NCBI GenBank assembly: GCA_965116475.1
Contig: OZ220691.1
Coordinates: 864,001-928,000 of the forward strand
Direction: 5' to 3'
Source: Gemmatimonadota bacterium
GTDB taxonomy: Bacteria; Gemmatimonadota; Gemmatimonadetes; Palauibacterales; Palauibacteraceae
DNA: 64,000 nt
The number at the start of each line of letters is the position of its first letter. Positions within the stretch are counted from its first letter, which is position 1. The notes below the pieces were generated by a model. That model saw only the letters and a program-made list of their open reading frames with translations, searched no databases and had not been told where the DNA came from. Positions 12,626 through 35,498 of this stretch are shown one piece after another. The translations under genes and the position numbers were made by a program.

Positions 12626-12874
12626 AGGCTGGCGGGGTGAGTTGCGCAACCTCAAGCGCCCTGGCGTTGCTCGATATCCGCACGAAGCCCGATTCCGTGA
12701 CAGGGCAGGTGGCCCGGGATAGCGACCCGCCCCGCCGTGATTGTCGCGGCACCCGTGGATAATCTAGGTTGGCGGGCCGCGGTCCGACCGGGCATGGCGT
12801 CCGGGAGATCCGCCGAAAACCGCAGCGAATCAAAAGCGAATCAAGTGTGCCGCCGTAACAGGAGCGAACGCCCC

Positions 12875-20407: not shown

Positions 20408-20568
20408 CTCTTTCCTCCAGACGCTGAACGCAGGGTGTTACGGTGCCTGTGCGCGCTTTACGCGCCGCGCCGTGGGGAAGTGTCAGGCGGTGGACTGGCG
20501 ACCCCGCGCGTCGGCGCCGGCCCCCCCGGGCCGTTGACCGGCGACCCGGGCGGTTCGATGGTGTTGCC

Positions 20569-22785
20569 ATGAACCGCCGCCCGTCCCGTTCCGCCGTTTC
20601 GCCGAAGGCTCGCATCGCGGCGCTGGCTCGCGATGACAAGTGGTTCCTGGGCGGGTTGGACGGCGTCGTATGGGCGCCGCCGTTCCCGCGGTGGCTCCAC
20701 CGGCCGGGGTTCTGGGATCCGGCTCACCTGCTGCAGCATGAAGTCGGCCCCGGGTTCTCGGTGGCCCTCGTAGCCTCGGACGGGCGAGAGAGCCCGCTCC
20801 GTCGAGCGGCGCCCGGTCGGGGCGGTGACGGGCCGGCGCCGGACAGGTGGCGGCCCGGACGGCTGGTCGCCATGTGGGCCGATGAGCGAGGCGTCCTCGC
20901 CGAAGAGCGCCGCCAGGTGCTGCCGGGCGGCATCCTGGAATCGGCCTGGCACCTCCCCCGCGACTTCGAGGGACACCTCGTCGGCTTCACCGCGCAACCG
21001 GCGGATGCGACGGACGGGGTGGCGTTCACGGCGGACGGCGTGGGCTGGACGCGGACCGTCTCGGACCGGCGCGGGCAGGAACTCGTCCTGCGCGTGGAAC
21101 TCACGGGTTCCGTCCCGCCGGCGTGGCGGCGCATCGCACCGTCCGAGGGTCGCGTCGCGCCCGCATGGGTCCAGTCGCCCTTCGCGGAGGGTGTCGGAGG
21201 GGGTGCGGAGGACGCCGCGCGCCGTTCCGGGTGGATCTGGATCGCCGTCGCGCTTCCGATGCCGTCGATCAACGGCGGCTCAGCGGCGTTCCGGCTGACT
21301 CTCCGCCTTCCGGGCGCGGAACCCCGACGCCCGGATCCGGCGGCCTCGGCCTGGGAGTCCTTCTTCGGCGGTTTCCCGCATTTCGAGTGCGGCGACCTTT
21401 ATCTCGACCGCACGTTCGACTACCGCATCTACGGGCTCGGCCTGAACCGCATCGAAGGTCCATGGGGCCCGGTGCGGCGCCCCGCCATCGCCGAGGGTCC
21501 GGAGTACTTTCACGTCCCGGTCGCCTACAGCGCGCAGTGCCACATGATGGAAATGCGCTGGCGGGAGGGCGGGCGCGAAGCCTGGGGCTCGCTCCTGAAT
21601 TTCGTAGACAACCAGAAGCCCGACGGCTCCTTCCACGGGCGCCTCTACCCCGAGCGCCTCGAGGGAACCGACTTCTACCACGCCAACTGGGGCGACGCGC
21701 TGCTCGCGGTCGACGACGTGCATCCGGATCCGGCGGCGCTGGCCCGCTGCTACGAGGGGCTGTCGCGCTACGCCCGCTGGCTGACGGCGGAGCGCGACCC
21801 CGAGGCGTCGGGGATGTTCACCGTCACGAACCACTTCGAGACGGGACAGGAGTACATGTCGCGCTACATGGCCGTGGACGGGGAGGCGGACGTGGCGGGG
21901 TGGCGTCCGCGGCTCCGCCTCAAGGGGATCGACGTCACGGTGTACGCGCACCAGCTGTTCCGCGCCCTCGCCTCCGTGGCGCGCCGCCTCGAGCGCCCCG
22001 GCGACGAGGTCGAATGGCGCGGGCTCGAGGATCGCTGCAGGAGGGCGATCGACGAGCGCATGTGGTCGCCGGAGGCCCGGCTGTTCACGGACGTGGACGG
22101 GCGCACCGGCGAGCGGACCGGCGTGAAGGCGGCGGTGGGATTCTACCCGCTGCTCACCGGAGGGGTAGAGGGCGCGCGGCTCGATGCCCTGCTCGATCAC
22201 CTCGAGGATCCGGGGACCTTCGGCACGCGCTTCCCCCTGCCTTCGTCCAGCGTAGACGATCCGCGATTCTCGGCGGAGGGCATCTGGCGCGGGAAGCGCC
22301 GTAACTGCCCGTGGAACGGACGCGCCTGGCCGATGACGACGAGCCACGTGATCGAAGGGCTCCTGCGCTGCTGGCGCGGCGGGAACGCGCGGGGGAACGC
22401 GCGGGCCGGCGCGCTGGCGGCCGACATGCTCCACCGCTTCGCGCGCATGCTGTTCACCGATGGCGATCCCTCGCGCCCCAACTGCTTCGAGCACTACAAC
22501 CCGCACACGGGGCGGGCGTGCCACTACCGGGGGATTGACGACTACCAGCACTCGTGGATCCTCGACCTGCTGGCGCGCGGATTCGGCGGGCTTCACGTAG
22601 ACGCGTCGGGCGTCGAAGTGCGGCCGCTGCCGAACGGTCCCGCGCGCGTGTCGCTGGGACCGGTGATCGCGCGGGGGCGCACCGTGTCCATCGAGGTGGC
22701 GCCCGAACGGGTGCGCGTCGAGGTGGACGGCGAGCGGCTCGACGGGCCGCGCGCCGAAGGCTTGCGGGTGCCGTGGGACTCGTGA
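20569..22785 (+). CDS. MGH1/GH63-like (alpha/alpha)6 glycoside hydrolase
   Basis: ETGQEY, GFYPLL, WNGRAWP, CFEHYNP. Start set at ATG 20569. Confidence 0.72.
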   Translation: MNRRPSRSAVSPKARIAALARDDKWFLGGLDGVVWAPPFPRWLHRPGFWDPAHLLQHEVGPGFSVALVASDGRESPLRRAAPGRGGDGPAPDRWRPGRLVAMWADERGVLAEERRQVLPGGILESAWHLPRDFEGHLVGFTAQPADATDGVAFTADGVGWTRTVSDRRGQELVLRVELTGSVPPAWRRIAPSEGRVAPAWVQSPFAEGVGGGAEDAARRSGWIWIAVALPMPSINGGSAAFRLTLRLPGAEPRRPDPAASAWESFFGGFPHFECGDLYLDRTFDYRIYGLGLNRIEGPWGPVRRPAIAEGPEYFHVPVAYSAQCHMMEMRWREGGREAWGSLLNFVDNQKPDGSFHGRLYPERLEGTDFYHANWGDALLAVDDVHPDPAALARCYEGLSRYARWLTAERDPEASGMFTVTNHFETGQEYMSRYMAVDGEADVAGWRPRLRLKGIDVTVYAHQLFRALASVARRLERPGDEVEWRGLEDRCRRAIDERMWSPEARLFTDVDGRTGERTGVKAAVGFYPLLTGGVEGARLDALLDHLEDPGTFGTRFPLPSSSVDDPRFSAEGIWRGKRRNCPWNGRAWPMTTSHVIEGLLRCWRGGNARGNARAGALAADMLHRFARMLFTDGDPSRPNCFEHYNPHTGRACHYRGIDDYQHSWILDLLARGFGGLHVDASGVEVRPLPNGPARVSLGPVIARGRTVSIEVAPERVRVEVDGERLDGPRAEGLRVPWDS

Positions 22786-23915
22786 CGCGCGCGCCGCAGG
22801 GCGTGGAGCTGCGCGGCGTCGAGAAGCGATACGGCGAGATCGCGGCCGTCCGGGCGCTGGATCTGGAGGTCCGGCCGGGAGAGCTGGCGGTGCTGGTGGG
22901 GCCCTCGGGGTGCGGGAAGAGCACGCTGCTGCGCCTTATCGCCGGGCTCGTCGAACCCACCTCGGGAGAGGTGTGGATCGGGGGACGGCGCGTGGACGAT
23001 GTCGAGCCGGGCGCTCGCGACGTGGCCATGGTGTTCCAGAGCTACGCGCTCTACCCGCATATGACCGTGGCCGCGAATCTGGGCTTCGGCCTGCGTGTGC
23101 GGGGCACGCCGCGCGACGAGCTCGAGCGGCGGGTGGAGGAGACCGCCGCCACGCTCGGCCTCTCCGACCTGCTGTCGCGGAGGCCGGGCGAGCTGTCCGG
23201 CGGACAGCGTCAGCGGGTGGCCCTGGGACGCGCCATGGTGCGCGATCCCGGCGTATTCCTCTTCGACGAACCGCTCTCGAACCTGGACGCGGAGCTGCGG
23301 CTGCGGACGCGCGACGAGATCGCGGCTCTGCACCGGCGCCTCGGCACGACGATGATCTTCGTGACGCACGACCAGGTGGAAGCGCTGTCCCTCGGCCAGC
23401 GGGTCGCGGTGATGGACCGTGGCCGACTCCAGCAGGTGGGTACGCCGGATGAGGTCTACCGCCGACCCGCCAACCTGTTTGTGGCGGGCTTCGTGGGGTC
23501 GCCGCCCATCAACCGCATCCCTCTGTCGCGCGACGAACGAGGGTGCCTCGCGGGCGGTCCGTTCACCCTGCGCGCGCCGTCGTACCTCGACCGGGCGACG
23601 CTGGGCGTGCGGCCGGAGGACCTCGCCATAGTCCCCGCGGGGGCGCAGGATTCAAGCGAGGCGGGCGACGCCACCGAAGCGGGCGACTTCCGGGCCGTCG
23701 TGCTCCGCGTGGAGGCGCTGGGCAGCGAGCAGCGCCTGCACCTGGACGGCCCCGGCGACGCGGCCTGGGTGGCGCGCGCGGGCCCCGTCCTTCGGATCGC
23801 CCCCGGGGACCGGGTGAACGCGTCGGTCGCGTGGGAGCGCAGCCACCTGTTCGGTCCGGATGGCCGCCGCGAGGAGGCCGCGCCGCGACCGATGGACCGG
23901 GCGGGCCCCCGATGA
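22782..23915 (+). CDS. Carbohydrate ABC transporter ATP-binding protein (MalK/UgpC family)
   Basis: GPSGCGKST, MVFQSYALYPHMTV, LSGGQRQR, FLFDEPLSNLD, VTHDQVEA; GTGA overlap. Confidence 0.95.
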   Translation: MTRAPQGVELRGVEKRYGEIAAVRALDLEVRPGELAVLVGPSGCGKSTLLRLIAGLVEPTSGEVWIGGRRVDDVEPGARDVAMVFQSYALYPHMTVAANLGFGLRVRGTPRDELERRVEETAATLGLSDLLSRRPGELSGGQRQRVALGRAMVRDPGVFLFDEPLSNLDAELRLRTRDEIAALHRRLGTTMIFVTHDQVEALSLGQRVAVMDRGRLQQVGTPDEVYRRPANLFVAGFVGSPPINRIPLSRDERGCLAGGPFTLRAPSYLDRATLGVRPEDLAIVPAGAQDSSEAGDATEAGDFRAVVLRVEALGSEQRLHLDGPGDAAWVARAGPVLRIAPGDRVNASVAWERSHLFGPDGRREEAAPRPMDRAGPR

Positions 23916-25231
23916 CGCGCCCCCGGCCGGGCACCCGCAGATCCCTGCCGGCCACCACCGCTCGCGGCGTGGTCTGCGCCGCCCTCATCCTTGGGGCGGT
24001 CGGCTGCGCGCCCAGCGAATCGGACATCGTGCTGCGCGTGGCCCTTTGGGCCGGGGGGCACGAACTCGAGATCGAGCGGCAGGTGGCCGACCGCTACGAG
24101 GCGCAGCACCCCGGCGTCCGCATCGCGCTCGAATCAGCCCCCAACGGATACGAGGAGCGCCTGCTGACCTCGATCGCGGCGGGGCGTCCGCCGGACGTCT
24201 ACCTCATGGACTCGCCGGACATCCCGACCTTCGTGGAGCGCGGGCTGGCGCTGGACCTCGCGCCGTACGAGGAGGCGCTCGGCTGGCGGCCGGACAGCGT
24301 GTTCAGGCAGGTGGCGGACGCGTTTCGCCGGGGCGCGTCGATGTTCGCGCTGCCGAAGGACTTTACGCCGATGGTCCTGTACGCGAACCGGACCGTGCTC
24401 GCCGCCGCCGGCGTCGAAGACCTTCTGCCCGCGGCGAACTGGACCTGGACGGACTTCCGGCAGGCCGCGGAGGCGGTCGTCGCGGACGCCGACGGCGACG
24501 GCCGCGACGACGTGTTCGGGTTCGACTTCCCGCGCAACCTGTACCAGTGGGTTCCATTCGTGTGGTCGGCGGGCGGCGACATCCTCGCGCCCGGCGGCGG
24601 CACGGCGGCAGGCTACCTGGACGGGCCGGAAGCGCTGCAGGCCTACCGCTTCCTCACGGCTCTGGCGGAGGACGGCCTCACGCCGGGCGCGCAGTTCGTG
24701 CAGCAGGGAGACCCCGCGCGGGAGGCGCGCTTCGCATCGGGCGGACAGGCGTTCCTGCTCTCGGGCCACTGGACGCTCCCCGTGTTCCGCGACCTGGTGG
24801 AAACGGGCGACCTGGACCTGGCCATCGTCCCCATCCCGCACCATCCCTCGCGGACAGCAGCGACCAGCGTGCTGTACGCGTCCGGGTGGGCCGTGCCGCC
24901 GAACGCGACGCACCTGCGCCGGGCCATCGACCTGGCCGGCTTCCTCGCCTCGCCCGACGCGCAGCGCATCCGGGCGCGGTCGGGACTCGCCATTCCGTCG
25001 CGGATGGATGTGGCGGCCGAGATCGCGGCGGCGGACGGCACGGGAGTGGAGCGTGCGTTCGTCGAGTTGGTCGAGGGCGCGCGGATGACGTGGGGCGCCC
25101 GCGTGCGCGACTTCTCCCGCATCGAGGCGCTGGCGGTGGAGATCATGGACCGCCGCCTGATTCGGGGAGAGCCCCTCGCAGCGAGCGCCGCGGACGTGGC
25201 CCGCCGCATCGACGCGGAGCTGGGGCGGTGA
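23912..25231 (+). CDS. Sugar ABC transporter substrate-binding lipoprotein (family 1)
   Basis: Lipobox AVGC, IAAGRPPDVY, ALPKDFTPMVLYAN, WTWTDF; ATGA overlap. Confidence 0.88.
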   Translation: MTRPRPGTRRSLPATTARGVVCAALILGAVGCAPSESDIVLRVALWAGGHELEIERQVADRYEAQHPGVRIALESAPNGYEERLLTSIAAGRPPDVYLMDSPDIPTFVERGLALDLAPYEEALGWRPDSVFRQVADAFRRGASMFALPKDFTPMVLYANRTVLAAAGVEDLLPAANWTWTDFRQAAEAVVADADGDGRDDVFGFDFPRNLYQWVPFVWSAGGDILAPGGGTAAGYLDGPEALQAYRFLTALAEDGLTPGAQFVQQGDPAREARFASGGQAFLLSGHWTLPVFRDLVETGDLDLAIVPIPHHPSRTAATSVLYASGWAVPPNATHLRRAIDLAGFLASPDAQRIRARSGLAIPSRMDVAAEIAAADGTGVERAFVELVEGARMTWGARVRDFSRIEALAVEIMDRRLIRGEPLAASAADVARRIDAELGR

Positions 25232-27009
25232 GCCGCGCGCGGCAACCGGCCCTCGCCGCCCTTGCCGCCGTCGTCCTGGCCGCCGGGCTGGCGCTGGTGC
25301 TGGCCGTCGGCGCCGGCCGCGGGCACAGCGTCCGCGTGGATTCGGCCGAAGCCGAAGCGCGCATGGCGGCCGCGCTGTGGGAGGAGGCGGGCGGCGCCCG
25401 GGCGGTCACCGCACTGCTCGGTGAACGAGCGACGATCCTCGGCGCGGGCGCCGGAGGCGACGGGGCGGGGGCATACGCGTACGAGGCCGGCACCCTCGAG
25501 CCCGCCGCCTGGATCGCGGTCGCGCCGCGCCGCGCGTACGGCCCGCTGGGGGCCCTCCCCGGCGCGGCCGGCGCCATCGCGCTGGCGGGCGCCGCGCTCA
25601 TCGCCGGCTGGGCCGCGGGCCGGCGCCGCGGGCCGGCCCGTTCTCGCTACCCGGGGGGCATCGCGCTCCTCTCCATCGGCTGCGTCGCCCTGGCGGCGGC
25701 CGTCACCGGGCGGTGGGCGGACCGCGAACTCCGATCGCTGAGCGCCGCCACGGTGGCCCAGGGGGCACAAGCGGTCGAGCGGGCCCTGGCGAGCGGCGCG
25801 GAGCCGGCCCGCGCCGCCCGGGTCGCCCACCTCCCCTGGGCCGAGGACCACTCGCTGGAGGCCACCGGCGAGCAATGGACCATGCCGCCTGAAGTCGCGG
25901 CGGCCATCGCCGCCTCGCCCGACCGAGCCACGCAGCCCGCCGGCACGCCCGCGGGGACGCCGTACACGGTGGAAGCGGGCGGCGCCACGTGGCACGCGGC
26001 CCGCGCCGCCGACATCCACGTCGCGTTCCTCGGCTACGAGCGTACCGCCTCGCCCGCCCTCGCGCTGGCCGCCGCGGCCGCGCTCGCCACCCTGCTGGTC
26101 GCGCTGGCGCTCCACCTCGTGCAACTCGCGGCCCGTCCCCGCGTCCTGCGCCGAACCCTCGCGGCGTGGGGCCTCCTCGCGCCGGCCGCGGCCCTCATCC
26201 TCGCGTTCACGCTCGGGCCGCTCCTCTTCTCCCTCTGGATCTCGCTGCACGAGTGGCGCCTCATCGATCCCGCGCCGCTCTTCCTCGGATTCGACAACTA
26301 CGCGGCGCTGCTCGGCGACGGCGAGTGGTGGTCGGCGATCGGGAACACGGCGCTGTTCACGCTGCACGTGCCCGCCGCGATGGCCGTCGCCCTCGCCCTC
26401 GCGCTCCTCACCCGGGGGTCGCGCCGCGCCGCGCGCTGGGCCCGGCTCGCCCTCTTCCTCCCCGGCATCACGAGCGTGGCGGCGATCGCCGTGGTGTGGA
26501 AGTGGCTGCTCAGCGACCGGTACGGGCTGCTGAACCGGGGCCTGGAGCGCATCGGGCTCGAGTCCGTCCCGTGGCTCAGCTCGCCCGACACCGCGCTGAT
26601 CAGCCTGATGCTGATCGGCATCTGGATGGTGGTGGGCTACCAGATGGTCGTCTTCCAGGCGGGCCTCGCCGCGATCCCGCGCGACTGGTACGACGCGGCC
26701 CGGGTCGACGGCGCGGGGCCGTGGCAGCGCCTCCGCCACGTCACCCTGCCCGGCCTGCGCCACACGCTGTTCTTCGTGCTCGTCACGTCCGTCATCGGGT
26801 CCTTCCAGGTGTTCGGACTCGTCTACGTGATGACCGAGGGCGGCCCGCTGGGCGCCACTGACGTCGCCGTATATCACATCTACCGCGAGGCGTGGGAGTT
26901 CCTGCAGTTCGGCAACGCGGCGGCGATGAGCTGGATGCTGTTCGCCGTCGTGTTCGCCGCCACGTGGCTGCACTTCCGCTTCCTCGATACGCGGCGCGCC
27001 CATGGCTGA
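25228..27009 (+). CDS. Carbohydrate ABC permease with a long N-terminal extension
   Basis: C-terminal MalF/UgpA-type permease (FLGFDNY, IPRDWYDAARVDGAGPWQ, IGSFQVF); GTGA overlap. Confidence 0.85.
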   Translation: MSRARQPALAALAAVVLAAGLALVLAVGAGRGHSVRVDSAEAEARMAAALWEEAGGARAVTALLGERATILGAGAGGDGAGAYAYEAGTLEPAAWIAVAPRRAYGPLGALPGAAGAIALAGAALIAGWAAGRRRGPARSRYPGGIALLSIGCVALAAAVTGRWADRELRSLSAATVAQGAQAVERALASGAEPARAARVAHLPWAEDHSLEATGEQWTMPPEVAAAIAASPDRATQPAGTPAGTPYTVEAGGATWHAARAADIHVAFLGYERTASPALALAAAAALATLLVALALHLVQLAARPRVLRRTLAAWGLLAPAAALILAFTLGPLLFSLWISLHEWRLIDPAPLFLGFDNYAALLGDGEWWSAIGNTALFTLHVPAAMAVALALALLTRGSRRAARWARLALFLPGITSVAAIAVVWKWLLSDRYGLLNRGLERIGLESVPWLSSPDTALISLMLIGIWMVVGYQMVVFQAGLAAIPRDWYDAARVDGAGPWQRLRHVTLPGLRHTLFFVLVTSVIGSFQVFGLVYVMTEGGPLGATDVAVYHIYREAWEFLQFGNAAAMSWMLFAVVFAATWLHFRFLDTRRAHG

Positions 27010-27823
27010 CCGCGCGGTCGCGCCCCGGACGGCGCGGGGGCTCCTGCTCGCCGCGGCCTGCCTCGTCATGGCCGCGCCCTTCGCGTGGATGGCGCTCACG
27101 AGCCTCATGGGACAGCTCGAGGTGTTCGCCGGCGGGAGCCTCCTGCCGCGGCCGCCGCGGTGGTCCAACTATCCGGAGGCGCTGACGGTCCAGCCCTTCG
27201 GGCGCTACTTCCTGAATTCGGCCCTGTTCGCGACCGCGGTGGCGGCGGGCCAGGTCGCGACCTCGGCCACGGCCGGGTACGCCTTCGCCCGCCTCGACTT
27301 CCCGGGACGGGACGGGCTCTTCATGCTCTTCCTGTCGACGATGATGGTGCCCGCGGTCGTCGTCCTCATCCCCCGTTTCCTCGTCATCGAGGCCCTCGGC
27401 TGGATCGACACCTACCAGGGACTCATCTCCACGGAACTCGTCTCGGTGTGGGGCATATTTCTCATGCGCCAGTACTTCCGGACGGTGCCGCGCGAGCTGG
27501 AAGACGCCGCGCGCGTGGACGGCGCCGGGCGGGTGCGCATCTTCTGGAGCGTCGCCCTGCCGCTCGCGAAGCCCGCCGTGGCCACGCTCGCCCTGTTCGC
27601 GTTCGTCGACGCGTGGAAGAACCTGCTGTGGCCGCTCCTCGTGACCCGCTCCACGGAGATGCGGGTCGTCGAGGTGGGGATCGCCGCCTTCCATTCGACC
27701 TACGAGATCAACTGGCCCTACCAGATGGCGGCCGGCGTCGCCGCCGTGCTGCCCATCGCCCTCCTCTTCCTCTTCACCCAGCGGTACTTCGTGCGCGGCA
27801 TCCAACTGGAAGGCATCCGCTAG
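27002..27823 (+). CDS. Carbohydrate ABC permease (MalG/UgpE family)
   Basis: AGYAFARLDFPG, PRELEDAARVDGA EAA loop, FTQRYFVRGI. Confidence 0.94.
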   Translation: MADRAVAPRTARGLLLAAACLVMAAPFAWMALTSLMGQLEVFAGGSLLPRPPRWSNYPEALTVQPFGRYFLNSALFATAVAAGQVATSATAGYAFARLDFPGRDGLFMLFLSTMMVPAVVVLIPRFLVIEALGWIDTYQGLISTELVSVWGIFLMRQYFRTVPRELEDAARVDGAGRVRIFWSVALPLAKPAVATLALFAFVDAWKNLLWPLLVTRSTEMRVVEVGIAAFHSTYEINWPYQMAAGVAAVLPIALLFLFTQRYFVRGIQLEGIR

Positions 27824-27824
27824 C

Positions 27825-29675
27825 GTGATGCGGGTCGGGGCGCTCGAGGCGCGGCGCTGGGCCGGGCTCGTGTTTGCGGCCGGGCACGGCGAGGGGATCG
27901 GCCTCCGCCTCGTCTTCACCACACCTGACGGCGAGCGGCGGGAGTTGGAGGACTGGTACTGGATGGTCTCCCGTGTCGGTCCCCACGCGCCGGATGGATC
28001 CTACGCGCGCATGGAGTTCGACCTCGCCGCCGAGACGTCGGCGGACTCCCGCCCTGCGCGGAGCACGCTCATACTGGAGTGGTCGCGGCGCGAGAATGCC
28101 GTGGCATTGCGGGCGGTGGCGCGAGCGCCGGGCCGTGTGGCGTTGGTGGGGGACGATCCGTGGGGGTGGAAGACGACGTGGGAGAAAGCGTCCGAAGGCT
28201 GGCGGGCCGCGCTGGAAGGCATGGAGATCGCCGCCGCCTTCGCGCCTCGGGCGGGGGAACGCGCGGCCACGGTGGTCGCATGGGAGCCGCGAGGGGCGCC
28301 GTCCGGATCCACGGCCGCTCTGGACCGCGCCCAGCGCCTTCTCCCGGAGGTGGACCGCTGGATCGACGACGCGCGCGCCGACTGGGACCGTCGCCGTCCA
28401 CGTGGGTCGGGGGCCGCGGAAGGACTCGTCGAAGCCGTTGCTGACCACGCGGTGTGGAATGTCCTCCTCCAGCCGGAAACCGGACGCCTGTACGCGCCGG
28501 CGGGTCGTCGCTGGATCTTCCCGAAGCCCCGGCGCGCTGTACGGGAAGAGCCGCCCGGGCCCGACGACTGGACGGTGTTCGGGTGGGATTCCTTCTTCAA
28601 CGCGCTCGCGCTCGCCACCGCGTCGGGGCGGTTGGCGTGGGAGGTGCTCCTCGCCGGGCTCGAGTCGCGCTATCCGAACGGGAACGTGCCCAACTGGAGG
28701 AGCCGGCGCGGGGGCACGCCCGACCGCTCCCAGCCCCCGATCGGGTCGTTCGCCGCCTTGAAGCTGCACCTCACCTGCCCTGACGAGGACGCACTGGCGG
28801 CGGCCTGGACAGGGCTTCGCGCGTGGAACGACTGGTGGGTGGCGGACAAGGGCGGACGCCCGCGCCGCGAGGGCCTCACCCCGGGACTGCTGGCGTGGGG
28901 CTCGGATGCGGCGCTGATTCCGCCATGCAAACAGCTTCCGGAGTGGGAGGTGGGCGCCGGCGGCCACCAGCGCGCGGCGTGGGAGTCGGGCCAGGACGAC
29001 CTGCCGCTGTGGGAGGAGGCGGAATGGGATCCGGAGCGGGAAGTCCTCGCCATGTCCGCCGTCGATCTGTGCAGCTACCGCGCGCTGGACCTCGAATGCC
29101 TGGCGCGGATCGCCGCCATCCTGGGCGACTCGGCGGAGGCGGAGCGGCTGGAGGCCGAGCGCCGCCGGCTGGTCGCGACGATGAACCGGGTGCTGTGGTC
29201 CGAAGCCGCCGGGCTCTACCTGGACGAGCTGCCTGCCGGTCGCTCTCCTCGTGTGGCGGCGTCGAACTTCCTTCCCCTGATCGCCGGCGTGCCGTCAACG
29301 CGGCGGGCGCGGCGCATGATCGGCGTGCTGCGCGACCCCGCGCGCTTCCGGGGACAGTGGATGCTGCCCACCATCTCGCGCGACGACCCGGCGTTCGAGG
29401 ACCAGCAGTACTGGCGCGGCTCCATCTGGCCGCCCATGAATTACCTCGTGCTGCAGGGACTGCGGCGGTACAGGTTCGACGAACTCGCAAACGAACTGGC
29501 ATGGAAGGGGGCGCTCATGTTCCTCGCCGACCTCCGGCGCACGGGGTTCTGCCGCGAGAACTTCGACGCGCGCAGCGGTCGGGGGCGGGGGCACCGCTTC
29601 CAGAGCTGGGGACCGCTGTTCGCGCTCGGCGCGATCGAGGAGACCGTCAACGGCTGTCCATGGCGCGGACGGTAG
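27825..29675 (+). CDS. MGH1/GH63-like glycoside hydrolase
   Basis: VFGWDSFF, RSQPP, WESGQDD, YWRGSIWPPMNY, CRENFD. Confidence 0.82.
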   Translation: MMRVGALEARRWAGLVFAAGHGEGIGLRLVFTTPDGERRELEDWYWMVSRVGPHAPDGSYARMEFDLAAETSADSRPARSTLILEWSRRENAVALRAVARAPGRVALVGDDPWGWKTTWEKASEGWRAALEGMEIAAAFAPRAGERAATVVAWEPRGAPSGSTAALDRAQRLLPEVDRWIDDARADWDRRRPRGSGAAEGLVEAVADHAVWNVLLQPETGRLYAPAGRRWIFPKPRRAVREEPPGPDDWTVFGWDSFFNALALATASGRLAWEVLLAGLESRYPNGNVPNWRSRRGGTPDRSQPPIGSFAALKLHLTCPDEDALAAAWTGLRAWNDWWVADKGGRPRREGLTPGLLAWGSDAALIPPCKQLPEWEVGAGGHQRAAWESGQDDLPLWEEAEWDPEREVLAMSAVDLCSYRALDLECLARIAAILGDSAEAERLEAERRRLVATMNRVLWSEAAGLYLDELPAGRSPRVAASNFLPLIAGVPSTRRARRMIGVLRDPARFRGQWMLPTISRDDPAFEDQQYWRGSIWPPMNYLVLQGLRRYRFDELANELAWKGALMFLADLRRTGFCRENFDARSGRGRGHRFQSWGPLFALGAIEETVNGCPWRGR

Positions 29676-29685
29676 GGTCGTCCCG

Positions 29686-31899
29686 ATGAGGCGTGTGGAG
29701 TCGGCCGACCGGTCGGAGCGGGCGACGCTGGTCATCCTCGCCGCTGGGCGATCCACGCGGTTCGGTCGCGCCAAGCAGCTCGAACCGATGGGGCCGGGCG
29801 GCGCGTCGCTGCTCGAGTACGCGGTGTACGACGCCCTGCGCGCGGGCTTCGAGCGTTTCGTGCTCGTGGTGCGCGAGAGCCAGCGCGACGAGTTCGAGGC
29901 GCGTCTGGCTCCACTGCGCGCGGCGGGGGTCTCTCTCTCCTTCGCTTGCCAGCGCCTGGTCCACCCCGACCTCGTCCCCCTCGCCCCACCCGGGCGCGTC
30001 CGGCCCTGGGGCACGGGATTCGCCGTGTTGGCCGCGGCGACGGCCCTGACCCATCGCGGCGCGTTTGCCGTCTGTAACGCGGACGACTTCTACGGGCGGG
30101 TCGCGTACGAGCGCCTGGCGCACGCGCTCGCGACGCCTCCCTCGGGTATCCGCGCCTTCGCGGTGACCTCCCCCTTGACCCACACCCTGTCGGCCTTTGG
30201 AGGCGTGTCGCGCGGCCTTTGCGAAGCGGGGCCCGACGGCACACTCCTCCGGATGACGGAAGGCCTGGATCTGCGCCTCGACGGCGACGCGCCCGGGGAC
30301 GCTGCGCGGACGGGCGAAGGAGCCGAGCCCTCGGCCGGCCGCCCCTGCGTCGTCGGGCACACTCCCGCCGGCGCAGCGGTCCGGGTGGACGCGGACAGCC
30401 AGGTGTGCATGGGTCTGTGGGGATTCTTCCCCGACATCCTGCCCCTGCTGGAGGAACGCTTCCGGGATTTCGTCGCTGCCTCCCCGGGGACCGAGGACGA
30501 GTTCTACCTGTCGGAGACCATCGGCGATCTTGCGGCCGCCGAACGGACGCGCTGCGGCCTGGTGCCCGCGGGCCCGGGATGGATGGGCGTCACTTTCCCC
30601 GGAGACCGCGAGGGCGTCGCCGTGTCGCTTCGGCAACTGACCGAGGCCGGCGCCTATCCCGTCGATCTCTGGACGCCGCACGTTCACGCGAAGCCGGTCC
30701 GCGCGGCTCAGGCGTCGCTCTTCAGTCCGCCGCAGGCGCCGCCGAGTGGGGTGGCGACCGCTCCAGGGCGCATCAACCTGATCGGCGAGCACATCGACTA
30801 CAACGGCCTGCCGGTGCTGCCGATGGCTCTCGACCGACACGTCCGGCTGGATTTCGAGGCGCTGCGGTACTCGACGGTCGAACTCGAAGGCGATTCCGCC
30901 CACGGTTCGTTCGCCTTCCGGCTGGACCGCACCACAGAATCCGCACCCCGGGGCCACTGGTCGAACTACGTGAGGGCCGCGGCCAGGGGATTGCTCGACC
31001 ACGGCGTGGAACTGAAGCGAGGCATCAGGGGAACGGTCACGGGCACCGTGCCGGTGGCGGAGGGGCTGTCGTCCTCTTCCGCCCTTGTAGTGGCGTCCGC
31101 GCTGGCCCTGTTACACGCGAACGAAGCGGACGTAGAGGCCCTGGAACTGGCGGCGCTTCTCGCCCGGGCCGAGCGTTATGTCGGCGTGCAGGGCGGCGGG
31201 ATGGACCAGGCCGCGTCGCTCTGCGGAAAGGAAGGGCACGCGCTGCGGATCGACTTCGGACCGCTGCGCGTGACACCCGTGCCGGTGCCGGAGGGGTGGC
31301 GCTGGGTCGTCGCCTCGTCGTTGACGCGCGCCGAGAAGGCGGGAGCGGTCCGCGAGTTGTACAACGAGCGGCGGGCCCAGTGCGCGGAGGCCCTCGAACG
31401 GGTGGGTCAGGCTTCCTGGCTGGAGGTCGTGGAAGCCGGCCGGGCCGAGTTCGAATCCATCCTGGCCGGGGCACAGAGGTCGCTGCCGCTCACGTTGTGG
31501 AGGCGCTTTCGCCACGTGGCCACCGAGGGTCGCCGGGTGATCGAGGCCGAGCGCGCGCTTCGCGACGGCAACATGGCGGCCTTCGGCCGGCTGATGAACG
31601 CATCGCACGCCAGCCTGCGCGATGACTTCGGCGTGAGCACGCAGGCGCTGGACGAGATCGTGGGCGTGGCCCTCGAGGCGGGGGCGGCCGGCGCGCGGCT
31701 CACGGGCGCGGGATTCGGCGGCTGCGTGGTCGCGCTCTGCCCCGCGAACGAGGCGAAGGGCGTGATCGAAGCCCTGCTCGATCGCTTCTACGCCCCCCGA
31801 GGAGGGGTCGACCGCCGTGCCCTCTTCGTCGCCGACGCCGCCGACGGCGCCACCGTAACGAGCGGTGGGCCGTTGGCCGTCTCGACAGGCGATAGCTAG
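29686..31899 (+). CDS. Fusion of sugar-phosphate nucleotidyltransferase (N-terminal) and galactokinase-family GHMP kinase (C-terminal)
   Basis: LVILAAGRSTRFGRAKQLE, PWGTG, NADDFYG, EFYL, WMGVT; then PGRINLIGEHIDY, PVAEGLSSSSA, GGGMDQ, GARLTGAGFGG in one frame. Confidence 0.9.
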   Translation: MRRVESADRSERATLVILAAGRSTRFGRAKQLEPMGPGGASLLEYAVYDALRAGFERFVLVVRESQRDEFEARLAPLRAAGVSLSFACQRLVHPDLVPLAPPGRVRPWGTGFAVLAAATALTHRGAFAVCNADDFYGRVAYERLAHALATPPSGIRAFAVTSPLTHTLSAFGGVSRGLCEAGPDGTLLRMTEGLDLRLDGDAPGDAARTGEGAEPSAGRPCVVGHTPAGAAVRVDADSQVCMGLWGFFPDILPLLEERFRDFVAASPGTEDEFYLSETIGDLAAAERTRCGLVPAGPGWMGVTFPGDREGVAVSLRQLTEAGAYPVDLWTPHVHAKPVRAAQASLFSPPQAPPSGVATAPGRINLIGEHIDYNGLPVLPMALDRHVRLDFEALRYSTVELEGDSAHGSFAFRLDRTTESAPRGHWSNYVRAAARGLLDHGVELKRGIRGTVTGTVPVAEGLSSSSALVVASALALLHANEADVEALELAALLARAERYVGVQGGGMDQAASLCGKEGHALRIDFGPLRVTPVPVPEGWRWVVASSLTRAEKAGAVRELYNERRAQCAEALERVGQASWLEVVEAGRAEFESILAGAQRSLPLTLWRRFRHVATEGRRVIEAERALRDGNMAAFGRLMNASHASLRDDFGVSTQALDEIVGVALEAGAAGARLTGAGFGGCVVALCPANEAKGVIEALLDRFYAPRGGVDRRALFVADAADGATVTSGGPLAVSTGDS

Positions 31900-31933
31900 A
31901 ATGGCGGGGATGGATCAGGACAGGATTCTGCCG

Positions 31934-32143
31934 ATGCAAACCTACACTGCCGTCGTGGAGCGCTGCCCCGACACGGGCCTGTATGTGGGCTATGTGCCCG
32001 GTTTCCAAGGTGCGCACAGCCAAGGCGAGACCCTTGAGGAACTCAACCGGAATCTCAAGGAAGTGATCGCCATGCTTCTCGAGGAGGGGACGCCCGCACT
32101 CGTTGGCGAGTACGTCGGGACCCAGACCGTCGTCCTGGCCTAG
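31934..32143 (+). CDS. hicB: HicB-family antitoxin (short form)
   Basis: YVGYVPGFQGAHSQGETLEELNRNLKEVI. An alternative in-frame ATG lies at 31910. Confidence 0.88.
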   Translation: MQTYTAVVERCPDTGLYVGYVPGFQGAHSQGETLEELNRNLKEVIAMLLEEGTPALVGEYVGTQTVVLA

Positions 32144-32149
32144 GCTCGG

Positions 32150-32377
32150 GTGCCGCCGGTCCCCGTCCTCAAGCCGCGCGAGGTCGTTTCAATCCTCCGT
32201 CGGCTCGGTTTCAAGGAAGTGCGACAGCGGGGGTCCCATAAGCGGTTCCGCCATCCTGATGGTCGCGCAACGACCGTACCCGTCCACGGCGGCCGGGACG
32301 TGTCACCCATACTGCTCCGAAGGATCGCCCGCGAAATCGGCCTGACGATTCACGAGTTCGTTGAGCAGCGGCGATAG
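32150..32377 (+). CDS. hicA: HicA-family toxin (mRNA interferase)
   Basis: [31 protein letters not shown]. Confidence 0.92.
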
Positions 32378-32384
32378 GGAAACC

Positions 32385-35300
32385 ATGAAGCACACCGGTA
32401 GCGGCGTAACCACGATGCAGGGCTCTGGGTCAAGCTGGAAGTCGGGAAACCAGCAACACCGTCTTCCATACGCGGCCATCCTGTGCGCCGCCTTGGCGGT
32501 AGTCTCGTGCGATGGCCCGGGGCCCCGCGCTCGGATCTCGGAGGAGGTGCGGGTGCTGGACACCTACCCGTTTTCGGATCCGAATCCCGTGCCGGTACTG
32601 GCCACCGACCGGCGGCTGTACCCCTACCATACGTTCGAGGGATACGCGGCGACGTCGGAGCCCCGGGAGTGGAAGGTCGTGACGATGGAGAACGACCTCA
32701 TCGAGGTCTTCGTCCTCCCCGAGGTGGGCGGCAAGGTGTGGGGGGCCGTGGTGAAGGCGACCGGCCACGAGTTCATCTATCGGAACGAAGTGATGAAGTT
32801 CCGGGACATCGCGCTGCGCGGTCCGTGGACCTCGGGCGGTCTCGAGTTCAACTTCGGCGTCATCGGGCACACGCCGGCCACCGCCACGCCCGTCGACTAC
32901 CTCCTGCGCGAGAACGCGGACGGCAGCGTGAGCACGATCGTCGGCGCCACCGACCTCCCATCGCGGACGCCGTGGCGGGTCGAAATCCGGCTTCCGCCGG
33001 ACCGGGCCGCCTTCGAGACGCGCGTCCTGTGGTACAACCCGACCCCGCTGGAGCAGCCTTACTACAACTGGATGACGGCCGCGGCCTTCGCGCAGGACGA
33101 CCTTGAACTGTTCGTGCCCGGCAACGCCTACCTGGAGCACTCCGGCCGGGCGCGCCCCTGGCCCGAGGACGAGGAGGGGCGCTTCCTCCCCCTCTACCGC
33201 AACAACGCGTTCGGGGGACACAAGTCCTACCACGTCGTCGGGGCCCTGAACGACTTCTTCGGCGGCTACTACCACGACGAGGACTACGGCTGGGGGCACT
33301 GGGCTCCGCACGAGGAGATGCCCGGGCGCAAGATGTGGCTGTGGGCGCTCTCCCGCGCCGGCGGCATCTGGGAGGATCTGCTCACCGACACGGACGGCCA
33401 GTACGTCGAGTTCCAGGCGGGGCGGCTGCATGCGCAGTACGCGCCCGGGGCGGACAGGAATCCGATCTCGCAGGCGGGGTTCGATCCGCTCTCGGCGAGC
33501 CGCTGGACGGAGTGGTGGTTCCCGCTGGAGGGAACGGGCGGCCTCACGGACGCCTCCCCGCACGGCGCCATGCACGTCGAGCGGGTGAGCGACGGCCTGC
33601 GGGTCGTGGTCCAGGCGTTCGGATCCGGGGTCGACACCGTGGCGGTATGGTCGGACGGTGAACAGATCGCCGCCCGGGCGGTGGCCTTCGAGGCCCTGGA
33701 TCCGCTGACGGTCGAGTTCGACGTCGCGCCCGGGCGTCCGTGGCGTGTCTCGCTCCCGGGGCTCCGCCTGGAAGCCTGCTCGAGACCGGGCGCAACCGGT
33801 CTCGCCGGGGTGTGCGGATTCGGCGGAGAGCCCTCGGTGTCCCGACCGTTCGGGACGAACGCCGAGGCATGGGAGGCACTACCGGAAACGGACCGCCTGG
33901 TGTTCGAGGCGAGGGAGTTGGTGCGGGGCCGGCGCCATGCCGACGCGCGGACGCGGTACGACCGCGCGCTCGCCGCCGAGCCGTGGAACCGGGAGGCGCT
34001 GCTCGGTCTCGGCGCGCTGGCGTTGAGGTCGGCTCGCTACGAGGAGGGCCTCGCCCACGCCCGGCGGGCGCTCCAGCTCGACACCTACGATCCGGAAGCC
34101 AACTTCCTCGCCGGCAACCTGTATCTCGCCCTGGGGCGCCGGGCGGATGCGCTCGACTCGTTCGGCTGGGCCGCCCGGTCAGTGGAGTTCCGGGCCGCGG
34201 CGCGCACTCGGCTGGCGGAATTGGCGCTGGAGGCGGGGGACATGGCCGAAACACGCCGCCACGCCGCTCTGGCACTCGACCACGACCGCGTGAGTATTCC
34301 GGCCCGCGAGGCGCTGGCGATCGCGGCGCGGCTCGAGGGAGACGAAGCGGGTGCGGCGCGCGTGCAGGCGGAACTGCTGGAACTGGATCCGCTGAACCAT
34401 TTCGTGCTGGCCGAGCGCTATCTCGCGGCGCGGGCCGCAGGATCCGTCAGCGCGGAGGCGGCGGACGGAGCCGAAGCAGCGCGCCTCACCGCCTCGATGC
34501 GGAGCGAGTATCCGGGACAGACGCTGCTGGAACTCGCCGTGGGGTACGCGAACCGCGGGCTGGACGCCGATGCCGCGCGCTTGCTGGAGTTGGCGGACGA
34601 GGTGGGCGGCGGCCCCGTCGCCGCGGCGTGGCTCGCCTTTCTGACGCAGGATCCGGACCTGCTGCGCGCGGGGGCCGATCCCGCCTTCGCCTTCCCCTAC
34701 CGCCCCGAAACGCTGCCGGTCCTGCGCTGGGCGGCCGCCGAAGACGCGCACTGGGGCTGGCGTTACCTGCTGGGCCTGAACCTGTGGGCGCTCGATCGCG
34801 ACGCCGAGGCGGCCGAGGTGCTGGGGACCCTGGGCGACGAACCCGACTACGGCCCCGCCTATGCGGCGCGCGCACACCTGACTGAAGCCATGGGCGGCGA
34901 CCCGAGTCCCGATTTCCTGCGCGCCGTCGCGGTGGATCCCGGGAGCCGCCTCCTCCACATCTCCCTCATCCGGCATCTGCAGGAAACGGGACGGTGGGCG
35001 CAGGCGCGCGAGGCGTCCGGCCGGGGAACGGGACTCTTCCCGGACGACTTCAACCTCGCCCTCCTCCACGTGCGAGGGCTCATCCAGGCGGGCGAGTACC
35101 GCGAAGCCAACGGGATCCTTGCCGGCACCCGCGTACTACCCTCGGAGAACTCCGGCGAGGCCCACCGGCTGTACGAGTTCGCGCACGTCGGCGCCGCGCT
35201 GGACGAACTGGAGGCCGGGAACCGCCCGGCCGCCCGCCGTCACCTGGAGGCCGCGCTGCTGTGGCCGGAATCGCTCGGCCAGGGCCGTCCCTTCGACCCT

Positions 35301-35498
35301 GACGACCGGCTGGTGCGGTTCCTGTTCGACGCGGCGGCGGAAAACCCCGATGGCGTACCCCGGGCCTTCGAGACCGTCACCATCGCCTCGCTGCGCGCCC
35401 GCATCGATTCGCTCGGCGCCGCCCCGTCCCCGATCGCGACGATCGAGCAAGACCTCCTGCGCCGGGCCCTCTCCGCCGCCGCCCGCCTGGAACGCTAG
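32385..35498 (+). CDS. DUF5107-like domain plus TPR-repeat lipoprotein
   Basis: Lipobox LAVVSC, MENDLIEVFVLPEVGGK, RGPWTSGGLEFNF, GRKMWLW, YVEFQAGR, TPR-like helical C-terminal half. Confidence 0.78.
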   Translation: MKHTGSGVTTMQGSGSSWKSGNQQHRLPYAAILCAALAVVSCDGPGPRARISEEVRVLDTYPFSDPNPVPVLATDRRLYPYHTFEGYAATSEPREWKVVTMENDLIEVFVLPEVGGKVWGAVVKATGHEFIYRNEVMKFRDIALRGPWTSGGLEFNFGVIGHTPATATPVDYLLRENADGSVSTIVGATDLPSRTPWRVEIRLPPDRAAFETRVLWYNPTPLEQPYYNWMTAAAFAQDDLELFVPGNAYLEHSGRARPWPEDEEGRFLPLYRNNAFGGHKSYHVVGALNDFFGGYYHDEDYGWGHWAPHEEMPGRKMWLWALSRAGGIWEDLLTDTDGQYVEFQAGRLHAQYAPGADRNPISQAGFDPLSASRWTEWWFPLEGTGGLTDASPHGAMHVERVSDGLRVVVQAFGSGVDTVAVWSDGEQIAARAVAFEALDPLTVEFDVAPGRPWRVSLPGLRLEACSRPGATGLAGVCGFGGEPSVSRPFGTNAEAWEALPETDRLVFEARELVRGRRHADARTRYDRALAAEPWNREALLGLGALALRSARYEEGLAHARRALQLDTYDPEANFLAGNLYLALGRRADALDSFGWAARSVEFRAAARTRLAELALEAGDMAETRRHAALALDHDRVSIPAREALAIAARLEGDEAGAARVQAELLELDPLNHFVLAERYLAARAAGSVSAEAADGAEAARLTASMRSEYPGQTLLELAVGYANRGLDADAARLLELADEVGGGPVAAAWLAFLTQDPDLLRAGADPAFAFPYRPETLPVLRWAAAEDAHWGWRYLLGLNLWALDRDAEAAEVLGTLGDEPDYGPAYAARAHLTEAMGGDPSPDFLRAVAVDPGSRLLHISLIRHLQETGRWAQAREASGRGTGLFPDDFNLALLHVRGLIQAGEYREANGILAGTRVLPSENSGEAHRLYEFAHVGAALDELEAGNRPAARRHLEAALLWPESLGQGRPFDPDDRLVRFLFDAAAENPDGVPRAFETVTIASLRARIDSLGAAPSPIATIEQDLLRRALSAAARLER

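Follow-up and report, generated by a model that had tools for sequence, protein, structure and literature searches.

A sugar-1-phosphate nucleotidyltransferase fused to a galactokinase-type kinase in sponge-associated Gemmatimonadota: a predicted one-protein route from free sugar to UDP-sugar

The window analysed here is a stretch of 64,000 nt from a sponge-associated bacterium of the phylum Gemmatimonadota with DNA of 71% G+C (assembly GCA_965116475.1, contig OZ220691.1, positions 864,001 to 928,000). It contains a single open reading frame (ORF) that joins an N-terminal sugar-1-phosphate nucleotidyltransferase (NTase) domain, of the type represented by Protein Data Bank (PDB) entry 3pnn, to a C-terminal GHMP kinase domain of the galactokinase type (Table 1). 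In Pfam searches the N-terminal half matches NTP_transf_3 (residues 16–79, E 1.5e-9) and NTP_transferase (16–176, 6.2e-5), and the C-terminal half matches GalKase_gal_bdg (353–386, 2.6e-16), GHMP_kinases_N (427–515) and GHMP_kinases_C (623–702). A first-pass annotation of this DNA had described one 737-residue frame with both domains intact and a border at about 30670/30750. The ORF, Pfam and NCBIfam results agree with this description, as do the end of the NTase domain at YPVDLW (residues 324–329) and the start of the kinase at about residue 353 (nt 30742). We propose, from protein families, motifs and gene context, that the fusion is probably a natural bifunctional salvage enzyme that would convert a free sugar to its 1-phosphate and then to a UDP-sugar.

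Table 1. The fusion gene, its parts and the neighbouring genes of the cluster, in window positions.
Feature	Position	Strand	Details and basis
Whole fusion ORF	29686..31899	+	ATG start, 737 aa, stop codon included; ORF listing
N-terminal 3pnn-type sugar-1-phosphate NTase domain, residues ~12–330	29719..30675	+	3pnn_A match, AF2 model, Foldseek
Gly/Ala/Pro-rich low-complexity insertion within the NTase domain, residues ~199–235	30280..30390	+	Gap in family alignment
Pro/Ala-rich inter-domain linker, residues ~331–352	30676..30741	+	Sequence; low pLDDT
C-terminal GHMP galactokinase-type domain, residues ~353–725	30742..31860	+	Pfam, NCBIfam, PDB matches
GH63b, GH63/MGH1-like hydrolase, head of the same-strand cluster	20443..22785	+	Pfam 4.4e-44
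ABC sugar transporter: ATPase (ABC_tran and TOBE_2), solute-binding protein (SBP_bac_8/1), two permeases	22554..27823	+	Pfam
GH63a, GH63/MGH1-like glycoside hydrolase, ends 10 nt before the fusion	27825..29675	+	Pfam MGH1-like_GH 1.2e-44
HicB/UPF0150-like ORF, its first 35 nt shared with the 3' end of the fusion	31865..32143	+	92 aa; Pfam UPF0150 1.7e-7
DUF5107 and TPR protein, downstream	32361..35498	+	1045 aa; Pfam DUF5107 6.4e-124; PDB 5cd6 3.7e-25

High-GC DNA gives long spurious ORFs, and the two genes stand apart in related genomes, so the single ORF could in principle stem from an error in assembly or sequencing, or two neighbouring genes could have run together recently as a pseudo-fusion. 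Contigs from four public runs were aligned to window positions 29500–32100, and in every run a contig bridges the junction (~nt 30676–30741) without gaps: 30202–31211 in the probable source run (X1, 0 differences), 30543–30864 and 30547–31225 in two independent sponge metagenomes (X2, 3 differences; X3, 34 differences), and 30415–30777 in a sponge metatranscriptome (X5, 30 differences). RNA libraries can hold DNA, so the last of these is no proof of transcription. None of the indels listed falls in the linker. They comprise an in-frame 12-nt deletion at 30293/30294 (30293–30305) in the X3 and X5 contigs and a −1/+1 pair at 30046/30050 that compensates itself; both are in the NTase domain, the deletion in its low-complexity insertion. 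The full-length fusion is present in 16 of the 25 genomes of the genus, with 76–100% identity if the source genome is counted and 76–90% in the 15 others. Another genome, G021, has a divergent fusion of 812 aa (45% identity); the halves are separate genes in five of the remaining genomes, one has the kinase alone, and two have neither. Both domain sets occur in 35 of 120 listed protein clusters; those that bear a name in their source are called “galactokinase” only and come from Gemmatimonadota or Ca. Palauibacter. In an alignment of 32 fusions, with identities down to 55%, the catalytic motifs are invariant in both halves. Sequence support over the linker and the spread of the architecture both argue against an artefact, which we consider extremely improbable; the fusion is genuine.

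The linker varies in length and sequence between fusion proteins. In a whole-protein AlphaFold2 (AF2) model built from 32 close homologues, the mean predicted local distance difference test (pLDDT) is 69 and the predicted template modelling score (pTM) is 0.47, with residues 331–351 below a pLDDT of 50. The N-terminal domain alone, modelled from 46 family sequences, gave a pLDDT of 90 and a pTM of 0.89, with the low-complexity insertion at 59–70. Its sole strong solved relative in a PDB sequence search is 3pnn_A (E 9.8e-52), an uncharacterised protein of Porphyromonas gingivalis W83 with an entry title that says glycosyltransferase. Foldseek likewise placed 3pnn at the top (E 4.7e-29, template modelling score (TM) 0.88 on the target), followed by RmlA (thymidylyltransferases), UGPase, inositol-1-phosphate cytidylyltransferase (IPCT), GlmU and AGPase, with E values of ~1e-11 to 1e-12 and TM of 0.51–0.60 on the query. 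All of these neighbours have the RmlA/GalU/GlmU fold, which makes the domain a sugar-1-phosphate nucleotidyltransferase by fold. Its motifs are LAAGRSTRFGRAKQ at 18–31, Q89, PWGTGFA at 107–113, CNADDFYG at 130–137, GVSRG at 173–177 and VCMGLWGF at 240–247. The family residue is kept at 27 of 27 invariant columns of the family alignment (A1), 3pnn having all 27 as well; these columns include the G-x-G-x-R...K loop (18–31), Q89, PWGT (107–110), NADD (131–134) and R176. NADD aligns with “LADD” of GalU in a PDB alignment, and the low-complexity insertion is missing from most family members. The invariant Q89 closes the strand 83–89 and is followed, before PWGT, by an insertion of ~17 residues. HMMER placed the Gln of GalU elsewhere; Q89 may correspond to Q83 of RmlA, the Gln that specifies uridine or thymidine as the base. 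The roles of single residues are presumed to be those described for RmlA, GlmU and GalK. No Fucokinase-family and no UDPGP Pfam match was found for the domain at E ≤ 0.01, and database names on this half are generic only (such as “nucleotidyltransferase family protein”, “UTP-glucose-1-phosphate uridylyltransferase family protein”, “dTDP-glucose pyrophosphorylase”).

The kinase half carries GRINLIGEHIDYNG at 361–374, GLSSSSA at 460–466, GGGMDQ at 503–508, YNERR at 559–563 and TGAGFGGC at 673–680. GHMP motif II (PVAEGLSSSSA, 456–466) and motif III (TGAGFGGC) are thus both present, and both are invariant in the 32 fusions. The score against the NCBIfam galactokinase equivalog TIGR00131 is 256.5 bits, a small margin over the cut-off of 226.65 (canonical GalK of the sister family scores 336). 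Among PDB matches, the human N-acetylgalactosamine (GalNAc) kinase 2a2c is best, at 196 bits, ahead of Lactococcus lactis GalK (163), human GALK1 (~161) and yeast Gal1 (~150), in keeping with the earlier suggestion that the kinase is nearer to the eukaryotic GALK2/Gal1 type. R362 and D507, which we take from work on galactokinases to be the catalytic pair, align with the corresponding residues of 2a2c and 1pie. The two signatures on which the suggestion had been based, GEHIDY (within 361–374) and GGGMDQ, are indeed there and occur also in 2a2c; L. lactis GalK has GEHTDY and SGILDQ, and in the sister family canonical GalK reads GEHVDY and NCGIMDQ at these sites. The Tyr of the L. lactis “YNER” motif is retained as Tyr559 and is Phe in GALK2. 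Every GALK2-like kinase of the phylum carries the signatures, irrespective of the genes around it, and this type of signature is also found in true galactokinases such as yeast Gal1. Hence, it is not diagnostic of GalNAc.

The 3pnn-type NTases form a large family: 872 representative clusters match at E ≤ 1e-30, and 5271 if the threshold is relaxed to 1e-3. With few exceptions, the 150 listed members stand alone as proteins of ~300 aa. Other arrangements include P0126 (796 aa), with NTP_transferase and an SSF symporter domain in one chain; P0262 (555 aa), with the NTase at its C-terminus (251–552); and P0123 (481 aa) and P0226 (430 aa), which have extensions. We found no relevant paper that mentions 3pnn. 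A pattern scan with one genome per species yielded 596 relatives, and at the best 80 loci the neighbours were grouped by unbiased clustering of all flanking ORFs and then assigned with Pfam. These loci come from many phyla, including Bacteroidota, Verrucomicrobiota (Akkermansia too), Acidobacteriota, Chloroflexota, Spirochaetota, Bacillota and Thermotogota. Many lie on short contigs, so the counts are lower bounds. The commonest neighbour is an APH-fold phosphotransferase (at least 24 of the 80 loci, median gap 15 nt), which is a close relative of the Bifidobacterium N-acetylhexosamine 1-kinase NahK (4ocu, E 3.5e-80); no paper on an NTase adjoining NahK was found in the literature searched. 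An SSF symporter is present at at least 12 loci, an NAD-dependent epimerase at at least seven (one scores 472 bits on the GalE equivalog), a 224-aa protein of no named family at at least seven, an MFS transporter at at least six, and GH20 at at least five. The typical company of the family is thus a kinase that acts on the anomeric position of a sugar, along with a transporter and a 4-epimerase.

Within Gemmatimonadota, for which we sampled 151 genomes, the NTase has a different partner, a GALK2-like GHMP kinase and not a NahK-like one. Two unfused arrangements occur. System A, found in family f3 as well as in those genomes of the window's own genus that have the split form, consists of GH109, type I phosphodiesterase and kinase genes in that order, convergent with an NTase–SSF pair. 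System B has NTase, SSF and kinase genes in that order on one strand, as seen in all five fetched loci of family f6 and at the locus G003b; a divergent epimerase gene accompanies it at two of the five f6 loci and at G003b. This epimerase matches PDB entries named UDP-glucose 4-epimerase (E 3.5e-76), and the best solved relatives of the System B SSF are chains named sodium/glucose cotransporter (2xq2/3dh4, 4e-32), presumably the Vibrio galactose symporter vSGLT. Both the NTase (47–63% identity) and the kinase (53–68%) occur in 12 f6 genomes; in 10 of these they share a strand and are no more than 10 kb apart, the exceptions being one pair 12 kb apart and one on different contigs. In f3, a GALK2-like kinase lies 0–6 kb from the NTase in eight of nine genomes. 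Canonical-type GalKs (≤41% identity) show no linkage to the NTase in the 151-genome sample. The linkage in f6 and f3, together with the NTase–SSF–kinase–epimerase operon, supports a route from kinase to NTase to UDP-sugar.

The kinase half of the fusion is 53–68% identical to System B kinases and 46–53% identical to System A kinases. In a tree of 110 NTase sequences (quick maximum-likelihood search, IQ-TREE), 13 fused N-domains and six System B NTases form one clade, with a Shimodaira–Hasegawa-like approximate likelihood-ratio (SH-aLRT) support of 100. System A, the NTases of the sister family (f2) and 79 of the 80 NTases counted as other-phyla all fall outside this clade, among them every one adjacent to NahK; the 80th (L085) in fact comes from Gemmatimonadota and clusters with the clade of that phylum. 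The simplest history would be that a System B operon lost the symporter gene between its two enzyme genes, within one genus of Gemmatimonadota, probably Ca. Palauibacter to judge by how close homologues are named, so that an ancestral NTase, Na+/sugar symporter and kinase operon gave rise to the fusion. The tree leaves a trichotomy of operon NTases and the two types of fusion (type 1 and type 2), which is compatible with a single fusion event as well as with two.

The unfused loci showed further features. At the split-form loci L022–L025 in the same genus, a gene caller based on third-position G+C (GC3) missed the kinase or NTase genes at several loci and caught their neighbours. We placed the missed genes from homology-match coordinates; they may have a lower third-position G+C and a foreign origin. 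A conserved protein of ~545–594 aa without a Pfam match adjoins the NTase at these loci. In family f2, the System A genes are spread through a larger glycan-degradation locus (L028–L030, L034, L036) with GH109, type I phosphodiesterase, GALK2-like kinase, NAGPA-type phosphodiester glycosidase, SSF, GH92, GH125, a GH5-like 1064-aa protein, a stand-alone NTase and a BNR/Sortilin protein. This locus may target phosphodiester-linked N-acetylhexosamine (HexNAc) on host-type glycans.

The fused NTases depart from two motifs that are near-invariant in the family, GTG-H/Q-A and V-S-M-N-x-W-G-F. Whereas members of the 3pnn family, almost all stand-alone among those listed, have GTGHA and VSMNxWGF, the fused forms have GTGFA and V[C/G]xGLWGF (GTGFA and VCMGLWGF in the window). 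Judged by these motifs, the fused NTase is a derived subgroup of the family. Residue counts at four positions are given in Table 2. F112, C130 and G243 are invariant among the 32 fusions, which makes retuning look likelier than decay, and N243G is confined to fused forms. The N-terminal halves of homologues are about as conserved as the whole proteins (73% and 73% for P0022), which argues for purifying selection on the NTase domain.

Table 2. Residues at four positions of the NTase domain (numbering of the fusion).
Position	Other-phyla loci (n=80)	Unfused System B (n=6)	Fusions (n=13)
112	His 69, Gln 11	Phe 3	Phe 13
130	Ile 70, Val 7, Leu 2, Ala 1	Cys 6	Cys 13
241	Ser 80	Cys 6	Cys 12, Gly 1 (P0025)
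243	Asn 79	Asn 6	Gly 13

What would the fusion replace in the metabolism of its host? GalT (PF01087) is found in none of the 25 genomes of the genus and in 14 of 16 genomes of the sister family, the class II GalT model not having been searched. The genome of the window, a single contig and 96.3% complete, has no PF01087 match, with control profiles matching in 6 of 14 cases, so that GalT does not stand alongside GalK there as it does in the classical Leloir pathway. The fusion is the only galactokinase-family match in this genome. That fact and the lack of GalT across the genus were counted in favour of galactose (Gal) as the substrate. The genome also has no match to aldose 1-epimerase (PF01263), and nothing over the cut-off for GalU (best 47 bits, cut-off 326.8) or NagA (33.6 bits, cut-off 225.65).

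In the window, the fusion shares a putative operon with genes for two GH63-like hydrolases and an ABC importer of sugars. GH63a matches TTHA0978 (2z07, 1.9e-16) and YgjK (8e-12) in the PDB and precedes the fusion at all 11 of the other fusion loci; YgjK probably acts on Glc-alpha-1,2-Gal. GH63b is 40% identical over ~755 aa to a GH63-like gene that adjoins canonical GalK in the sister family. The fused kinase thus fills a context that is held there by canonical GalK, and this favours Gal. The true starts of the ABC genes are uncertain because of the long high-GC ORFs. Overlapping ORFs at 23860–27009 (+, 1049 aa) and 24643–27168 (−, 841 aa) over these genes are mostly high-GC shadow frames, the former with a permease domain match in its C-terminal ~200 residues only.

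Downstream, the DUF5107 gene is conserved at nine of the 11 fusion loci compared; G021 has a copy with 58% identity beside its divergent fusion. Its product, with 5cd6 (“TPR-domain containing protein”) as sole solved relative, is thus a neighbour of both fusion types (also at L026:12007–16014, −); its N-terminus is lipoprotein-signal-like by eye, and we found nothing relevant on DUF5107 in the literature, judged by title. The HicB/UPF0150-like ORF is present in four of 11 other fusion loci, which suggests an insert, variable between strains, that separates the fusion from the DUF5107 gene; it is probably outside the pathway. Upstream of the sugar cluster are genes for a 1103-aa BNR/Sortilin-Vps10 repeat protein (12737–16048, +) and for an 867-aa protein that combines leucine-rich repeats with a region like an M66 metallopeptidase (17047–19650, +). 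In the sister family, too, a relative of the BNR/Sortilin protein is encoded beside the stand-alone NTase.

We propose the following mechanism. The C-terminal GHMP kinase would use ATP to phosphorylate the anomeric hydroxyl of a galacto-configured monosaccharide, with R362 and D507 in the active site. The N-terminal NTase, of RmlA/GalU fold, would then join the sugar-1-phosphate to a nucleoside triphosphate, yielding a UDP-sugar and pyrophosphate. UTP is the most likely nucleotide, given the UDP-hexose 4-epimerase encoded in the unfused operon and the fold. A separate UDP-hexose 4-epimerase would interconvert the product with UDP-glucose or UDP-GlcNAc. The first-pass annotation had proposed salvage of Gal or GalNAc to a UDP-sugar; the gene context fits its route from kinase to NTase, whereas the motifs do not choose the sugar. 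We put the chance that D-galactose is the main substrate, in a GalT-independent route to UDP-Gal, a little below even; GalNAc is possible and rather unlikely, and another sugar or a broad range accounts for what is left. The fusion-only N243G, together with H112F and S241C/G, was counted for Gal in the fused form.

A broader proposal, which we hold with considerable doubt, treats the fusion as a Rosetta stone for the family: 3pnn-type NTases would be UDP-sugar pyrophosphorylases that complete salvage by anomeric kinases, of the NahK type elsewhere and of the non-homologous GALK2 type in Gemmatimonadota, and N243G, H112F and S241C would have retuned the fused form from HexNAc-1-phosphate to Gal-1-phosphate, replacing GalK and GalT.

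Several observations weigh against a bifunctional enzyme for Gal. Outside Gemmatimonadota, a galactokinase gene lies within 10 kb of the NTase at just one of the 80 loci, so the family as a whole is not a partner of GalK, and its usual NahK-like kinase points to HexNAc and not to Gal. In Akkermansia, which carries both GalK and a member of the NTase family, galactose is toxic and the toxicity is relieved by galK mutations, according to the available text of PMC13313206; this suggests that ancestral-type NTases do not clear Gal-1-phosphate. The best solved relative of the kinase is a GalNAc kinase. No 4-epimerase is encoded in the window, and the best GalE-like match in the genome, ~43 kb away, scores 165.6 bits, below the cut-off of 262.3. 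At 1.043–1.048 Mb, the same genome keeps former companions of Systems A and B, namely genes for a GFO-type oxidoreductase (82% identity), an SSF (74%) and a GH109 protein (45%) with no kinase or NTase there, a cluster that lacks a kinase of its own, and GH109-type genes flank the paralogous System A kinases. The substitutions at near-invariant positions could equally impair the NTase, and no activity report for 3pnn or any member of its family was found in the literature searched. The whole-protein model has no fixed domain interface, which leaves substrate channelling without support. Zebrafish GKUP has the same domain order, and its pyrophosphorylase activity was not demonstrable in vitro, as far as the available text of PMC3938481 goes. 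Separately, we considered the NTase family as the general missing GalT of Bacteroidota and Akkermansia; the scarcity of GalK at NTase loci and the galactose sensitivity of Akkermansia weaken that idea.

The main competing explanation keeps the two-step chemistry and changes the sugar. As a bacterial counterpart of human GALK2 and AGX1, the fusion would make UDP-GalNAc or UDP-GlcNAc from GalNAc or HexNAc, for envelope glycans rather than for catabolism. The ranking of the PDB matches (196 bits for GalNAc kinase versus 163 for L. lactis GalK) fits this explanation, although the GALK2/Gal1-type signature is not restricted to GalNAc kinases. In its favour, too, the NahK-like HexNAc 1-kinase is the commonest NTase neighbour (24–25 of the 80 loci), and GH20 recurs (five loci); however, the fused NTase has lost Asn243, Ser241 and His112, which the NahK-partnered enzymes keep. 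GH109-type genes adjoin orthologous or paralogous kinases in the split-form genomes, f2 and f3, and the genome of the window retains GH109 and SSF genes without a dedicated kinase, but the fused lineage derives from System B, the paralogue that is not linked to GH109, and the present operon has GH63-like hydrolases and neither GH109 nor GH20. With no NagA over the cut-off, salvage would be a use for free HexNAc, and the sister family has a separate canonical GalK and a GalT, so its GALK2-like kinase would do something else. On balance, we think it unlikely that GalNAc or HexNAc is the substrate, and regard this as the most serious of the alternatives.

Two further possibilities are less probable still. 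The sugar could be L-arabinose, D-xylose, galacturonate or galactosamine, or the nucleotide dTTP, GTP or CTP. Promiscuity is common in anomeric kinases of the GHMP class and in short NTases. The GalK and uridyltransferase of Solitalea canadensis take xylose, according to the available text of PMC11267548. Among characterised proteins, the thymidylyltransferases (RmlA) are structurally nearest to the N-domain, and the neighbouring GH63-like and DUF5107 proteins do not name the sugar that is released. The close relative of UDP-glucose 4-epimerases in the ancestral operon, the score of the kinase above the galactokinase cut-off and the sodium/sugar cotransporters that are nearest to the transporter all argue the other way, and we consider another sugar or nucleotide improbable. 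A slightly smaller chance attaches to a fusion in which the kinase alone is catalytic and the N-domain is a regulatory, sugar-phosphate-binding or oligomerisation module. H112F, S241C/G and N243G, the low-complexity insertion, the name “galactokinase” given in the sources and the inactivity in vitro of the pyrophosphorylase half of zebrafish and Xenopus GKUP (as given in the available text of PMC3938481) fit such a protein. Loss of catalysis is hard to reconcile with the conservation of every invariant family position, from the G-x-G-x-R...K loop and Q89 to PWGT, NADD and R176, across 32 fusions, and with the similar identities of N-terminal halves and whole proteins; even the derived residues F112, C130 and G243 are fixed among the fusions, as in retuning.

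How does the proposed bifunctional enzyme compare with known systems? In the available text of the cited papers, natural fusions of a kinase and a pyrophosphorylase are described for fucose (Fkp/FKGP; PMC11982464, PMC9875253) and glucuronate (zebrafish GKUP; PMC3938481). Fkp also combines an N-terminal pyrophosphorylase with a C-terminal GHMP anomeric kinase in one chain, and converts a free sugar to a nucleotide sugar (PMC11982464, PMC9875253). In contrast, the fusion described here has a short 3pnn-type NTase, a galactokinase-type rather than a fucokinase-type kinase, and probably uses UTP rather than GTP. The lack of a Fucokinase-domain Pfam match places it outside the Fkp family; the precedent that the first-pass annotation had seen in Fkp holds for an analogous architecture and not for kinship. 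GKUP, from zebrafish and other lower animals, is similar in joining an N-terminal bacterial-type NTase of ~30 kDa to a C-terminal GHMP sugar-1-kinase, but is a eukaryotic protein with a kinase specific for glucuronate (available text of PMC3938481). Human GALK2 with AGX1/UAP1, and the galactokinases and UDP-sugar pyrophosphorylases of plants and Leishmania (Isselbacher-type), likewise use a GEHIDY/GGGMDQ-type kinase followed by a pyrophosphorylase and not GalT (PMC9306886, PMC4722067, as available). Those enzymes are separate proteins with large eukaryotic UDPGP-type pyrophosphorylases, whereas here the kinase is fused to a short NTase of RmlA/GalU fold.

The nearest counterpart is man-made. 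Chimeras of S. canadensis galactokinase and uridyltransferase (ScGalK–ScGPUT), joined by Gly/Ser linkers, take sugar to UDP-sugar in one chain and generally perform better with the pyrophosphorylase at the N-terminus; in the available text of that paper, FKP and glucuronokinase/pyrophosphorylase are the only natural examples given (PMC11267548). The better orientation is the natural domain order of the fusion described here. In the available parts of the literature, GalK and pyrophosphorylase are treated as separate enzymes (PMC9875253) or as man-made chimeras (PMC11267548). We found no description of a natural fusion of a GalK-type kinase to an NTase in the literature searched, in which subscription journals were thinly covered. 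A further parallel is the lacto-N-biose/galacto-N-biose (LNB/GNB) pathway of Bifidobacterium, with NahK, GalT2 and GalE2, where anomeric phosphorylation, nucleotidyl transfer and 4-epimerisation of a Gal/GalNAc-type sugar follow one another and the kinase is of the type that usually neighbours the NTase family. The Bifidobacterium pathway has an APH-fold kinase and a GalT-type transferase as its second step, whereas the fusion has a GHMP kinase and a predicted pyrophosphorylase, both in one chain.

What is the significance of such a fusion? UDP-Gal and UDP-GalNAc are costly donors in glycan synthesis, and current one-pot schemes combine a kinase with a separate pyrophosphorylase (available text of PMC9875253). 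A natural fusion that is conserved through a genus, and has the domain order that generally did better in the reported chimeras, offers biocatalysis a ready-made candidate in many sequence variants. For annotation, the gene context gives the 3pnn family a testable role, since its members are encoded next to NahK-like or GalK-like kinases, sugar symporters and 4-epimerases. For evolution, the locus would show a transition from operon to fusion in which the transporter gene in between was lost and the active site changed in a lineage-specific way. Several bacteria are reported to have GalK without GalT (PMC13313206, PMC5507952, as available). The genus described here is a further case, and the fusion is the obvious candidate for the missing step. 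If the fused NTase has indeed been retuned to Gal-1-phosphate, one protein would replace GalK and GalT in a genus that lost the Leloir transferase.

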